The position numbers were made by a program, and so were the translations under genes. A stretch of 64,000 nt of DNA from the NCBI RefSeq assembly GCF_040807025.1, contig NC_090973.1, positions 853,853-917,852 of the forward strand, given 5' to 3'. The notes beneath the pieces are model-generated. The model was not told the DNA's origin. It did no database searches and was given only the letters and a program-made list of their open reading frames with translations. Below are positions 23,241-26,650 of the stretch, piece after piece; position 1 is the first letter of the stretch; every line of letters starts with the position of its first letter. This DNA comes from Struthio camelus (Eukaryota).

Positions 23241-23449
23241 CGGACGAGGGCAGTGGGCCGTGGTGCTGCGGGGGAGGGGACAGACCCGGACGCCTGGGTC
23301 CACCGAGGGCAATGGGAGGGGGAGGGCGCAGGCCCGGACGCCTGGGCCCCCTGGGTGGGTGGGGACATGGGGGGCACCGAGGCGTGCTGGGGGGAGGGGG
23401 GGGGCCCGGATGCCTGGGCCCCCTCGCTCCTCCCCCCACCGCCGAGGCG

Positions 23450-23459
23450 GGTATTTAGG
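23450..23459 (+). promoter_or_regulatory. TATA-like element GTATTTAGGG upstream of SLC5A2
   Basis: The only AT hexamer between the satellite and the ATG. Sits 37-42 bp 5' of the ATG at 23494, which implies a very short 5' UTR. Confidence 0.35.
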
Positions 23460-23493
23460 GGGCAGCCCGGACGCCTGGGCCCGCCGGGGCGCC

Positions 23494-23580
23494 ATGGAGG
23501 GGGGGACGGTGGCCGTCACCCCCTGGGACCTGGGCGTCATCGGGGGCTACTTCGGCCTCGTCATCGCCGTGGGGCTCTGG
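23494..23580 (+). CDS. SLC5A2: SLC5A2 (SGLT2) exon 1: MEGGTVAVTPWDLGVIGGYFGLVIAVGLW
   Basis: ATG at 23494, donor GTAGGG at 23581. Matches human SGLT2 ...ADILVIAAYFLLVIGVGLW. Confidence 0.8.
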
Positions 23581-23589
23581 GTAGGGCCG

Positions 23590-24720
23590 GGACCCCCCCC
23601 CAGGACCCCTAACTGCCCTCTGGGACCCCTAACTGCCCCCCTGGGACACCTAACTGCCCCTCTGGGACCCCTAACTGCCCCCCGGGACCCCTAACTACCC
23701 CTCTGGGACCCCTAACTGCCCCCCTGGGACACCTAACTGCCCCTCTGGGACCCCTAACTGCCCCCCAGGACCCCTAACTACCCCTCTGGGACCCATAACT
23801 GCCCTCTGGGACCCCTAACTGCCCCTCTGGGACCCCTAAGTGCCCTCCGGGATCCCTAACTGCCCCCCTGGGACCCCTAAGTGCTCCTCTGGGACCCATG
23901 ACTGCCCCCCGGGACCCATAACTGCCCTCTGGGACCCCTAACTGCCCTCCGGGACCCATAACTGCCCCTAGGACCCCTAACTGCCCCCTTGGGACCCCTA
24001 AGTGCCCTCTGGGACCCATAACTGCCCCTCTGGGACCCCTAACTGCCCCCTGGGACCCCTAAGTGCCCCTCTGGGACCTCTAAGTGCCCCCCGGACCCTT
24101 AATTGTTCCCCTGAACCCCCTAAGTGCCCCCTCTGGGACCCCTTACTGTACCCTGGGACCCCTAAGTGGCCCCCCTGGGACCGCTAAGTGCCCCCTGGGA
24201 CCCCTAGCTGCCCTCCGGGACCCATAACTGCCCCCCTGGGACCCCTAAGTGCTCCTCTGGGACCCCTAATTGTTCCCCTGGACCCCTAAGTGCCCCCTTG
24301 GGACCCATAGCTGCCCCTCTGGGACCCCTAACTGCCCACTGGGACCCCTAAGTGCCCCCTTGGACCCCGAATTTCCCCCTTGGGACCCTTAACTGCCCCC
24401 TTGGGACTTCTAACTACCCCCCCGGACCCCTAAGTGGCCCTCTGGACCCATAACTACCCCCTTGGAACCCCCAAATGCCCTCCCTGGGACCCCTAATTGC
24501 CCCCTCAGACCCATATCTGCCCTCCTGGACCCCTAAGTGCCCCCCTGGACTCATAACTGCACCTCTAGGACCCCTAACTGCCCCCCCTGCACCCCTACCT
24601 GCCCCCTCAACCCCAACTGCCCCTCTGGGACCACTAATTGCCCCCCCTGAGACCCATAACTGCCCCCCTTGGACCTAAAATTGCCCCCTTGGGACCCCTA
24701 AGTGCCCCTGTGGGTCCCCT
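23590..24720. repeat. 21-bp satellite (CTGGGACCCCTAACTGCCCCT)n
   Basis: SLC5A2 intron 1. Confidence 0.88.
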
Positions 24721-24789
24721 ATCTATCTCCCAACCCTTAACTGCCCCCCCAGGACCCCTCACTTCCTCCGAGGCCCCAACCTGCCCCCA

Positions 24790-25250
24790 GGGCTCCCAAC
24801 TACCCCATTGAGTGACCTAGAACGTCCTCCCATGACGTACCTAGACCCCCTCCCAGTCCCTCCAGGGGCACCTACGGCCCCCTGGGACCCCTACGACACC
24901 CCCTGAGACCCCCCCCGACCCCTCGGGCCCACCAAAGACCCCTACTGAGGGCCTGGCCCCATTGAGTGACCTAGAACGTCCCCTGTGATGTACCTAAACT
25001 CCTTCCTGCCCCTCCAGGGGCACCCACGGCCCCCTGGGACCCCCATGACACCCCCTGAGGCCCCCCCCCAAGACTCCCAGGGACCCGCCAACCACCTCGC
25101 AGACCCCCAGTGCCCCCGCAAGCCCAACTCCATTGACCGACCTAGAACATCCCCATGATGCACCTAGACCCCCATCCGGCTCCCAGGACCTCCCAGTACC
25201 CCCCAACCCACTCCAGGCACATCCCACAATGCCCCGGGGAGGGGGGGTGA
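24790..25250. repeat. ~150-bp repeat, about 3 copies (CATTGAGTGACCTAGAACGTCC...)
   Basis: SLC5A2 intron 1. Confidence 0.65.
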
Positions 25251-25306
25251 GGACACCTGGCCCCCATCCCAGCTTGTTTTTTTGGCCTCACTGCTCCCAC
25301 CCGCGG

Positions 25307-25322
25307 TTAATTATTACCCACA
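25307..25322 (+). promoter_or_regulatory. HNF1-like site GGTTAATTATTACCC in SLC5A2 intron 1, inside an AT-rich islet (25300-25400) that also carries GGTTAATGAG and CTAATTAG
   Basis: Matches the HNF1 consensus GTTAATNATTAAC at 12 of 13 positions. Lies about 190 bp upstream of exon 2. Confidence 0.4.
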
Positions 25323-25514
25323 ATGCCCCAGTCCAAGAGGGCAGCGGGGCTGGTAATGAGATCTAATTAGCAGGGGGCAGAGGAGGGGGCCGGTGCGCAC
25401 GGGGTTAATGAGTGACTGTCCCAGCCGGGGAGGGAGGGGGCACACTGGGAGCACTGGGGAGCCCATACTGGGCGCACTGGTGGCCCCGGACTGGGAGCAC
25501 TGGTGGCCCCGCAG

Positions 25515-25586
25515 TCGCTGCGCCGGGGGAACCGCAGCACCGTCAGCGGGTACTTCCTGGCTGGCAGGAACATGGCGTGGGGGCCG
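25515..25586 (+). CDS. SLC5A2: SLC5A2 exon 2: SLRRGNRSTVSGYFLAGRNMAWGP
   Basis: Acceptor ccccgcag, donor GTGAGT. Sodium:solute symporter signature RGTVGGYFLAGRSMVWWP. 72 bp, phase 0. Confidence 0.9.
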
Positions 25587-25589
25587 GTG

Positions 25590-26650
25590 AGTGAGGGGGG
25601 ACGTGGGGGGACACGGAGGACTTGGAGGAACATGGAGGACATGAGGGACACGGGGGGACACGGGGGGACATGGGGGACCTGGAGGGACCTGGAGGGACTT
25701 GGAGAACATGGGGGACATGGGGGACATGGGAGGACGTGGGGGCATGGCAGGACATGGAGGGACATGGGACATGGGGGACATGAAGGACGTGGGAGGACAT
25801 GGAGGGACATGGGGGACATGGGGGGACACGGGGGGACATGGTGGGTCATGGCAGGACATGGAGAACATGGGGGACATGGAGGAACGTGGGGGGACATGGA
25901 GGGACATGGAGGGACATGGGGGGTCATGGGGGACTTGGGGGGACATGGGGGGACATGGAGGGACATGGGGGGACATGGAGGGACATTGGGGACATGGGGG
26001 ACATAGGGGACATGGGGGGACGTGGGGGGACGTGGGGGGACGTGGGGGGACATGGGGGACATGAAGGGACATGGGGGGACATGGGGGGACATGGAGGGAC
26101 ATGAGGAGACATGGAGGGACATGGGGGTCATGGAGGACATGGGGGGACATGGAGGACATGGAGGGACATGGGGGGACATGGAGGGACATGGGGGGACATG
26201 GGGGGACATGGAGGGACATGGAGGACATGGGGGGACATGGGGGGACATGGGGGACATGGGGGACATGGAGGGAGATGGAGGGACATGGGGGACATGGAGG
26301 GACATTGGGGACATGGGGGGACATGGGGGTCATGGAGGACATGGAGGACATGGGGGGACATGGAGGACATGGAGGGACATGGAGGGACATGAAGGACTTG
26401 GGGGGACATTGGGGACACGGGGGGACATGGAGGGACATGGGGGGACAAGGGGGACATGGGGGGACATGGGGGGACAAGGGGGACCTGGAGGGTCATGGAC
26501 GGACCTGGAGGGACATGGAGGAACATGGTGGGACATGGTGGGTCATGGAGAACATGGACAACATGGGGGACATGGAGGAACATGAGGGGACATGGAGGGA
26601 CATGGTGGGACATAGGAGACATGGAGGGACCTGGAGTGACCTTGGTGTCC
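25590..26650. repeat. 10-bp microsatellite (GGGGACATGG)n
   Basis: SLC5A2 intron 2. Confidence 0.85.

Follow-up and report, generated by a model that had tools for sequence, protein, structure and literature searches.

Glucose reabsorption in the kidney is mainly the work of SGLT2, the product of SLC5A2 and an important target for drugs; its proximal-tubule promoter is widely used to direct transgenes to the kidney. SGLT2 protein has been found in the proximal tubules of chicken. Both HNF1A and HNF1B recognise the same 13-bp inverted-repeat consensus, GTTAAT-N-ATTAAC (PMC11476927), and HNF1alpha directly activates SGLT2 in mouse and man (PMC7462921, PMC5577680), so that published work confirms, for these two species, the control of SGLT2 by HNF1alpha on which the original prediction relied. 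Secondary descriptions of the mapped mouse HNF1alpha site of SGLT2 (Pontoglio et al. 2000) put it within the 400-bp 5' flank (PMC5893140). The mouse Sglt2 proximal-tubule cassette (Rubera et al. 2004; AAV version PMC5893140) is described as joining the 5' flank and its HNF1 site to exon 1, intron 1 and a portion of exon 2; what intron 1 contributes is there called a 'splice region', and the available text maps no element in it (PMC5893140). A related case is SLC22A1/OCT1, in which HNF1 acts through an evolutionarily conserved region of intron 1, with both binding and reporter evidence (O'Brien et al. 2013, cited in PMC7959823).

Here we describe an HNF1-type module in intron 1 of the ostrich SLC5A2 gene, found in a window of 64,000 nucleotides, the whole stretch of DNA that was analysed. 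The target gene, the presumed factor and the consensus are those of the HNF1alpha site in the mouse and human SGLT2 promoters, as that site is described in secondary sources (PMC7462921, PMC5577680, PMC5893140), and hamster, porpoise, echidna, gecko and turtle have HNF1-like sites at about this promoter position. Unlike the mouse/human promoter site, the ostrich element lies not in the 5' flank but in intron 1, 1.8 kb downstream of the start codon, and its site B is closer to the palindrome, with 1 mismatch compared with 3 in the mammalian promoter sites seen. It resembles the SLC22A1/OCT1 case in combining a conserved HNF1 element, the first intron of a solute-carrier gene and a proposed boost of the upstream promoter. 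It differs in that SLC22A1/OCT1 is another gene, with liver as its main tissue, and in that the evidence on the SLC5A2 element comes from sequence and comparison.

Our preferred reading, to which we assign a probability of roughly 0.55, is that this module is a conserved intron-1 cis-regulatory or enhancer module at which HNF1 dimers, bound at two sites designated B and C, would drive proximal-tubule SGLT2 expression. The broader claim that the module is a constrained DNA element is highly probable. HNF1 is put forward as the factor because of the geometry of the motif, because the mammalian gene is known to depend on HNF1, and because the site recurs from class to class; HNF1 occupancy, enhancer activity, kidney specificity and cross-class homology are inferred. 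The gene being a known target of HNF1, an HNF1-type element in its intron is a candidate of a familiar kind and not a new mechanism.

The features are compiled in Table 1. A human SGLT2 sequence served only as a provisional tblastn probe for the exon model, which was then rebuilt on splice sites and checked against the database protein. Every junction of the resulting model is GT-AG, and the 15-exon product matches "sodium/glucose cotransporter 2-like [Struthio camelus]" of NCBI at 100% identity; the next-closest proteins are the SGLT2 of other birds (75-80% identity) and those of mammals, reptiles, amphibians and fish. With the exon model thus equal to the NCBI ostrich protein, the motif does lie in SLC5A2 intron 1 as originally predicted, and the distance then stated, about 190 bp upstream of exon 2, agrees with the 209 bp measured from the start of site B and the 196 bp from its end. 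In the orthologous loci fetched, RUSF1 lies downstream of SLC5A2, the same arrangement as in mammals. The TATA box is conserved in birds: the region GGGTATTTAGGGGG is kept in seriema, and tinamou has TATATA.

Table 1. Features of ostrich SLC5A2 around the intron-1 module, with HNF1-like sites of other amniotes (ostrich positions are those of the window).
Feature	Position	Strand	Remarks
SLC5A2 (SGLT2) gene	23494-44543	+	15 exons; product 605 aa
TATA-like TATTTA	23452-23457	+	42 bp 5' of ATG
SLC5A2 exon 1, coding part	23494..23580	+	ATG at 23494
SLC5A2 intron 1	23581..25514	+	mostly satellite
21-bp satellite array	23595-24763		intron 1
~152-bp repeat	24849-25068		intron 1
Module	25272-25416		~150 bp
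Block A, GCTTGTTTTTTTGGCCTCAC	25272..25291	+	T-rich, forkhead-like (TGTTT); 5' edge of module
Site B, GTTAATTATTACC	25306..25318	+	HNF1-type inverted repeat; left half perfect, right half 5/6 (ATTACC)
Bird-invariant 15-mer, TTACCCACAATGCCC	25314..25328	+	overlaps right half of site B; ZNF143/Staf SBS-like
Homeodomain/POU-type core, TAATGAGAT	25354..25362	+	collinear: turtle CTGTAATGAGGT, mammal GCTAATGAGGTCC, tinamou GCTAATGAGG
Homeodomain-type core, TAATTAGCAG	25364..25373	+	TAATTAG at 25364-25370; aligns with seriema CAATTAGTCG, turtle AAATTTAGCAG
Site C, GGGGTTAATGAGTGAC	25401..25416	+	13-mer GTTAATGAGTGAC at 25404-25416; perfect left half, 2 mismatches
23-bp minisatellite, ACTGGGAGCACTGGTGGCCCCGG (ACTGGGAGCACTGG repeat), 3 copies	25444..25511	+	TRF; between module and exon 2
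SLC5A2 exon 2, 72 nt, SLRRGNRSTVSGYFLAGRNMAWGP	25515..25586	+	spliced model, GT-AG
GGGGGGACAT array	25595-26634		fills intron 2
Turtle intron-1 site, GTTAATTATTACT			second site-like TTTAATAAGTCAC collinear with site C
Gecko intron-1 site, GTTAATTATTATC	232 bp before exon 2		1 mismatch
Echidna intron-1 site, GTTAATATTCAGC	216 bp before exon 2
Porpoise and hamster intron-1 site, GTTAATCTTCAGC	103 bp before exon 2 in each
Hamster promoter HNF1-like site, GGTAAACATTAAT	-56

Sites were scored solely by counting mismatches to the idealised palindrome GTTAAT-N-ATTAAC. The stretch GGTTAATTATTACCC is present in the window, and its 13-bp core, site B, departs from GTTAATNATTAAC at a single position (position 12, A>C), agreeing at 11 of the 12 specified positions. 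Nothing else in the 64-kb window comes within one mismatch of the consensus, and dinucleotide shuffles lead one to expect 0.01 such matches; one of 100 shuffles of the window contained such a match, and no site as good as B arose in 400 shuffles of ostrich intron 1. The near-perfect motif match originally reported is accordingly real and rare. Site C, which agrees with the consensus at 10 of 12 positions, lies 98 bp 3' of site B, just beyond the interval first considered, where it had been overlooked. It is the only further match in the window at up to two mismatches, giving 2 observed against 0.04 expected, and two such matches occurred in none of 100 shuffles. Perfect GTTAAT/ATTAAC half-sites number 4 in the 64 kb (2.4 expected), two of them being those of B and C. 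A c-Maf MARE within site C (TGAGTGAC against TGAGTCA) was also entertained and dropped; it is one base off and has no other support, and the mouse c-Maf MARE lies upstream of the transcription start site (TSS).

The module packs two HNF1-like sites, two TAAT cores, a T-rich block and an SBS-like 15-mer into 145 bp. The two further TAAT cores noted originally are both present, and of the 11 TAAT/ATTA cores of intron 1, seven fall inside 25308-25406. Block A aligns with CAGGTTGTTTATTTGACCTC in seriema and GGGTTGTTTTTGTGCCCTC in chickadee, and similar T-rich blocks occur in turtle and gecko; its TGTTT would suit a forkhead factor, an assignment we infer from the motif, and the factors proposed here for parts of the module other than the HNF1-like sites are conjecture. 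Earlier description of the surroundings as GC satellite holds, in that the tandem arrays listed in Table 1 occupy most of intron 1 and fill intron 2, and nearly all of the 5' flank of ostrich SLC5A2 is satellite. The accompanying description of a 100-bp AT-rich patch was overstated: the patch has 60.4% GC, where intron 1 has 65.3% and the window as a whole 69.1%, and an equal or higher AT content is found in 13% of all 100-bp windows. AT-richness proper is confined to a core of about 30 bp (25307-25336), whose 40% GC puts it among the lowest 0.6% of windows.

Conservation was assessed in six birds, namely ostrich, tinamou, seriema, budgerigar, chickadee and band-tailed pigeon, a set drawn from outside the Galloanserae. 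The ostrich module aligned with intron 1 of tinamou, seriema and budgerigar at z = 15-19, with none of 200 shuffles reaching the score; in a further run, none of 300 shuffles scored as high. Apart from the module and the ACTGGGAGCACTGG repeat, the rest of ostrich intron 1 is lineage-specific satellite that cannot be aligned with that of other birds. Conservation in related genomes had been proposed as a check on the original prediction, and it was found: ostrich, tinamou, seriema and budgerigar all keep the module with both HNF1-like sites. In place of the ostrich site B, tinamou has GTTAACCATTACC, seriema GTTAATCATTACC and budgerigar GTTGATCATTACC; the 13-mer of site C is identical to the letter in all four, and equally good sites were produced by 0, 0, 0 and 4 of 400 shuffles in these birds. 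Chickadee retains the 5' block and GTTACCCACAATGCCCC (E = 5e-6 with an nhmmer profile of the bird modules), with the left half of site B replaced and site C gone. In band-tailed pigeon the module is absent, the whole of intron 1 consisting of ACTGGGAGCACTGG satellite, and no HNF1-like site with two or fewer mismatches was found in the entire 36-kb locus. The loss of the HNF1 sites in chickadee and pigeon implies that HNF1 input through the module is dispensable in some birds. Conservation of the module within birds, and within mammals, is purifying; as judged from these alignments, the module is under constraint in most of the sampled bird lineages.

These figures bear on the simplest alternative, that the islet is a functionless AT-rich motif occurring by chance in a leftover scrap of unique sequence. 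Such a view is in keeping with the rapid turnover of the surrounding introns and with the two birds that have no sites. It would nonetheless have to accommodate a match expected 0.01 times in 64 kb, two sites side by side, a module conserved across the palaeognath-neognath split between unalignable flanks, and recurrence of the site in five non-avian amniotes. Rarity combined with conservation therefore makes chance an extremely improbable explanation.

The position of the module relative to the exons varies. In the two palaeognaths 55-209 bp separate it from exon 2, in seriema and budgerigar 0.8-1.3 kb. The ACTGGGAGCACTGG repeat, which extends over 1.2 kb in seriema and makes up all of intron 1 in pigeon, accounts for this: its expansion varied the distance between module and exon 2 and removed the pigeon module. 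Taking the species with a site together, the site is 55-1337 bp away from exon 2 and 276-2864 bp away from exon 1. Such free spacing to both exons is what a distance-independent DNA element looks like. The conserved non-coding block with freely varying exon distance is of the form expected of an intronic enhancer, and the motifs are clustered as well.

The same distances weigh against the possibility that the conserved block works as RNA, either as an intronic splicing element or as a structured RNA. In ostrich, tinamou, gecko and mammals it stands 55-232 bp ahead of exon 2, which would suit a splicing element, and sites B and C are paired with each other in the RNAalifold prediction. Such pairing is to be expected anyway from a palindromic consensus present twice, however, and no compensatory change was seen among the 19 predicted pairs; the folding energy is unremarkable (z = +0.70, with 153 of 200 shuffles folding at least as well), Rfam gave no match at the gathering threshold in the window and one chance-level match (E = 0.58) in the region, and the distance to the 3' splice site varies 25-fold. 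We consider a function as RNA very unlikely.

A more serious competitor concerns the identity of the factor. The left half of site B drifts among birds (GTTAAT, GTTAAC, GTTGAT, GCGCAG), and the 15-mer TTACCCACAATGCCC is identical in all five birds that have the module, that is, ostrich, tinamou, seriema, budgerigar and chickadee. Read from the alignment, constraint within birds is thus strongest on this 15-mer, which overlaps only the right half of the palindrome, and not on the palindrome itself; the most constrained avian factor may therefore not be HNF1. The core consensus of the ZNF143/Staf binding site (SBS) is YWCCCRNAATGC. The 15-mer contains an exact match to this consensus, the only one in the window, where 0.24 are expected and at least one was present in 21 of 100 shuffles. 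Published SBS1, TTCCCATTATGCACCGCG, is an 18-bp motif with a CCCA..AATGC core and an ACCGCG-type 3' half, and ZNF143 sites are typically no more than 2 kb away from a TSS (PMC3627581). The avian 15-mer has the same CCCA..AATGC core and is likewise less than 2 kb from the TSS; it differs from SBS1 in being intronic, in its incomplete 3' half and in its overlap with an HNF1 half-site, a feature that the available text does not describe for SBS (PMC3627581). Where SBS1 has ACCGCG, tinamou, budgerigar and chickadee have CCCGGG and ostrich has CCCAGT. Canonical SBS copies, TTACCCACAATGCACCGCGG, occur upstream in the budgerigar locus (L006:2627-3056) and share 18 of 20 positions with the 15-mer region.

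It could thus be argued that the module is regulatory but that its key factor in birds binds the 15-mer, a ZNF143/Staf-type SBS being the best fit, and that the HNF1 palindrome is an ancestral remnant, either decaying or no more than ancillary. The A>C change at position 12 of the palindrome would then be the C that completes the CCC core of the overlapping SBS (candidate TTACCCACAATGCCCCGGGG). Invariance of the 15-mer even in chickadee, which has no HNF1 left half, speaks for such a factor, as do its fit to the core, its resemblance to SBS1 and to the canonical budgerigar copies, and its typical distance from the TSS. On the other hand, the 3' half is matched only in part and the core occurs at a frequency near chance. 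Turtle, gecko and mammalian modules do not contain the 15-mer, though the HNF1 site is common to them; site C, which has no SBS, is equally invariant in four birds; and a ubiquitous promoter factor would leave kidney specificity unaccounted for. On balance, we regard this alternative as possible but unlikely, and the ZNF143 assignment of the 15-mer, suggested by motif similarity, as a lead, not a finding.

Outside birds, the loci of turtle, gecko, echidna, porpoise and hamster were compared, the comparisons across classes being partly post hoc; neither of two protein searches returned a crocodilian SGLT2. All five non-avian loci have an intron-1 HNF1-like site with a perfect GTTAAT half, the turtle module lying 0.8-1.3 kb from exon 2. 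The mammalian sites have 3 mismatches to the idealised palindrome; in mouse and human the counterpart would lie about 100 bp upstream of exon 2, at GGTTAATCTTCAGCC...GCTAATGAGGTCCAAAG. Each of the five sites is better than expected from the composition of the intron that contains it: equally good sites arose in 13 (turtle), 9 (gecko), 7 (echidna), 21 (porpoise) and 38 (hamster) of 400 shuffles. In tinamou and in porpoise the single perfect half-site of the fetched locus is that of the intron-1 element. Collinear blocks follow 3' of the site, namely GAGGAATGTGTTGAGGA.GCTAATGAGGTCC in mammals, CAGGAATGTACGAG...TTGTAATTTAGGT in gecko, CTGTAATGAGGT in turtle and CTGGTAATGAGATC in ostrich.

Homology among the mammalian modules is clear from the alignment scores (porpoise against hamster, z = 51; porpoise against echidna, z = 17.5). 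Between classes, local alignments reach z = 1-4, with several of the best segments falling on the HNF1 site or the TAATGAG block, and the nhmmer profile of bird modules did not find the turtle, hamster or pigeon sequence. As the bird profile misses turtle and hamster, the case for homology across classes is built on motif order, position and marginal local alignments, which make it likely. If the sites were not homologous, an HNF1-like site would have arisen repeatedly in this intron, which would also argue for function. The module appears to be old: turtle, gecko, monotreme and placental mammals have, at the equivalent point of intron 1, an HNF1-like site with a TAATGAG core 3' of it.

The original prediction had offered an alternative promoter as a second option, with transcripts starting within intron 1 just before exon 2. 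Some turtle isoform models (P0121, P0126 and P0145) do start at the exon-2 Met, without the coding part of exon 1; the AT-rich palindrome could serve as a TATA-like element, and SBS-like motifs are typical of promoters. In ostrich, by contrast, there is no in-frame ATG from the module to exon 2. The first Met would be residue 20 of exon 2, at the cost of the first transmembrane helix, and the Met used by the turtle isoforms is gone in birds, where SM(C/Y/F)RTNR of exon 2 has become SLRRG. No conserved upstream open reading frame was found, and in seriema, budgerigar and turtle the module is separated from exon 2 by 0.8-1.3 kb. The option thus fails for birds in its coding form, a coding alternative first exon being rejected on account of the missing in-frame ATG and the lost exon-2 Met. 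A non-coding or truncated transcript may still arise from intron 1, and an alternative promoter in general seems to us decidedly improbable.

In our preferred reading, that of an HNF1-type enhancer, HNF1A/HNF1B dimers would occupy B and C in proximal-tubule cells, other factors would occupy the TAAT cores and the avian 15-mer, and the module, from its downstream position, would enhance the activity of the TATA promoter, which lies 1.8 kb upstream of it. The 5' flanks of the fetched loci are relevant here. An HNF1-like site is present 56-107 bp 5' of the annotated start in turtle, gecko, echidna, porpoise and hamster; no promoter-proximal HNF1-like site was found at three or fewer mismatches in any of the six birds. 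Extending the search to 2 kb upstream left four of the six, including ostrich, without a site, pigeon and budgerigar each having one 3-mismatch match (at -1352 and -1227, respectively). With the promoter-proximal site missing, the intronic sites seem to be the only HNF1-type input near the avian gene.

A bolder version of the enhancer reading would make the intron-1 module, and not the textbook promoter site, an ancestral amniote determinant of proximal-tubule SGLT2 expression. The module would be the sole HNF1 input in birds, with a ZNF143-type site overlaid on it. The avian promoter flank would have been overrun by GC-rich satellites, leaving birds to rely on the intron-1 module. The bird ZNF143-type site, which would share four bases with the right half of the HNF1 site in the composite HNF1/15-mer element GTTAATTATTACCCACAATGCCCC, might compete or cooperate with HNF1, and GTTAAT satellites upstream of SLC5A2 in chickadee and pigeon would compensate for the lost intronic sites. 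We offer this version tentatively and hold it to be rather doubtful; if true, it would explain the presence of intron 1 in working mouse Sglt2 cassettes.

Full-text literature on SGLT2 regulation, with few subscription papers covered, yielded no paper on an HNF1 element in SLC5A2 intron 1, and this silence is weak evidence of novelty. A GWAS paper that names SLC5A2 together with HNF1 was set aside, since it contains no SLC5A2 intron-1 variant and its 'intron' variant lies 17 Mb off. An intronic HNF1-type element extending from birds to mammals would refine the picture of SGLT2 control, which has so far been attributed to the 5' flank. Because the Sglt2 cassette includes intron 1, it includes the rodent counterpart of the module, GTTAATCTTCAGC, which in hamster is 103 bp before exon 2; the element would thus be a concrete candidate reason for keeping intron 1 in Sglt2-Cre and AAV cassettes. 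It would likewise single out about 100 bp of human SLC5A2 intron 1 as a place to search for regulatory variants. As regards the genomics of birds, the locus suggests that small functional islands can be detected by conservation alone in the satellite-flooded introns of microchromosomes.

Finally, the GTTAAT-rich satellites upstream of SLC5A2 in chickadee and pigeon were rejected as canonical HNF1 sites, having the wrong spacing or one half only; their occurrence in these two birds is taken to be a coincidence.

Ostrich SLC5A2 spans 21 kb, as against about 6 kb in hamster and porpoise, because almost all of its introns are filled by GC-rich minisatellites that differ from intron to intron (units of 10, 19, 21, 51, 53 and 62 bp). 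The exons and the intron 1 module carrying the HNF1-like sites form small islands of unique sequence. In intron 1, the ACTGGGAGCACTGG minisatellite has kept its position at the 3' end for some 100 million years while growing and shrinking in copy number by lineage, from three copies in ostrich to about 1.2 kb in seriema and the entire intron in pigeon. In the segment around the module, Rfam gave a weak hit for conserved region 3 of Vax2os1, scoring 17.6 bits where the gathering score is 50 (E = 0.58); we put it down to chance.

Within the module, a 15-mer, TTACCCACAATGCCC, is unchanged in ostrich, tinamou, seriema, budgerigar and chickadee, overlaps the HNF1 palindrome on its right-hand side, and is lacking in turtle, gecko and mammals. 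By its sequence it resembles the core of the ZNF143/Staf binding site (SBS). In the stretch from its HNF1-like site to exon 2, the mammalian module has conserved blocks: GAGGAATGTGTT, with a TEAD/MCAT-like GGAATG, and, in both placentals, GAGGTCCAAAGATG, which has a DR1/HNF4-like shape and in whose place echidna carries GAGGTATAAACTCC. Gecko has CAGGAATGT in common with the mammalian module.

Coordinates of features in and around SLC5A2 (window, ostrich; L-handles, orthologous loci)
Feature	Species	Location
Promoter	ostrich	window 23250-23493
Minisatellite-filled introns	ostrich	window 23581-44403
Segment with the weak Rfam hit	ostrich	window 25265-25464
15-mer TTACCCACAATGCCC	ostrich	window 25314-25328
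15-mer TTACCCACAATGCCC	tinamou	L001:6873-6887
15-mer TTACCCACAATGCCC	seriema	L002:5503-5517
15-mer TTACCCACAATGCCC	budgerigar	L006:7662-7676
15-mer TTACCCACAATGCCC	chickadee	L004:6274-6288
ACTGGGAGCACTGG minisatellite	ostrich	window 25444-25511
ACTGGGAGCACTGG minisatellite	seriema	L002:5590-6830
ACTGGGAGCACTGG minisatellite	pigeon	L003:5150-7025
Exon 2 start	ostrich	window 25515-25520
Intron 1 blocks, HNF1-like site to exon 2	mammals	L010:3595-3625; L007:5575-5605; L011:3410-3436
GTTAAT satellite, 5' flank (66-bp unit x21; GGTTAATTAAC, GGTTAATTAGC, GGTTAATTACC)	chickadee	L004:350-1709
GTTAAT satellite, 5' flank (20-bp unit x95; CGTTAATTGGGTGGAGATGC)	pigeon	L003:1968-3874
TTACCCACAATGCACCGCGG tandem array	budgerigar	L006:2627-3056
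YWCCCRNAATGC matches, minus strand	chickadee	L004:22752-23414

Bird promoters, ostrich and orthologous alike, retain a TATA box (GGGTATTTAGGGGG) about 40 bp ahead of the ATG. Upstream of this box they also keep the block CCACTGAGG(T/G)CA(C/A)(T/A)TGGGG, in which there is an AGGTCA-like half-site for nuclear receptors; they lack the HNF1-like site that other amniotes have close to the promoter. The 5' flank carries GTTAAT-bearing satellites in chickadee and pigeon, the two birds that have lost the intronic HNF1 sites, with 74 and 87 perfect half-sites, respectively, compared with 0-1 in the remaining birds. Neither satellite unit matches a canonical HNF1 site, and these arrays could reflect chance, an origin from the intronic HNF1-like site B, or compensation.

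Exon 2 begins with S/A-L-R-R/K in all six birds sampled and with S-M-(C/Y/F)-R in turtle, gecko and mammals; birds have lost the internal methionine at which some turtle isoform models begin.

SBS-like matches were also observed at two other places. Upstream of budgerigar SLC5A2, near an SLX1-like gene, the canonical-looking ZNF143 site TTACCCACAATGCACCGCGG occurs five times in tandem, every copy adjoining a YY1-like AAGATGGCGGC, and the array looks like a repeated housekeeping-promoter unit. In the 3' part of chickadee SLC5A2, the SBS core (YWCCCRNAATGC) is matched six more times at intervals of 63-210 bp, presumably by a satellite bearing this motif.
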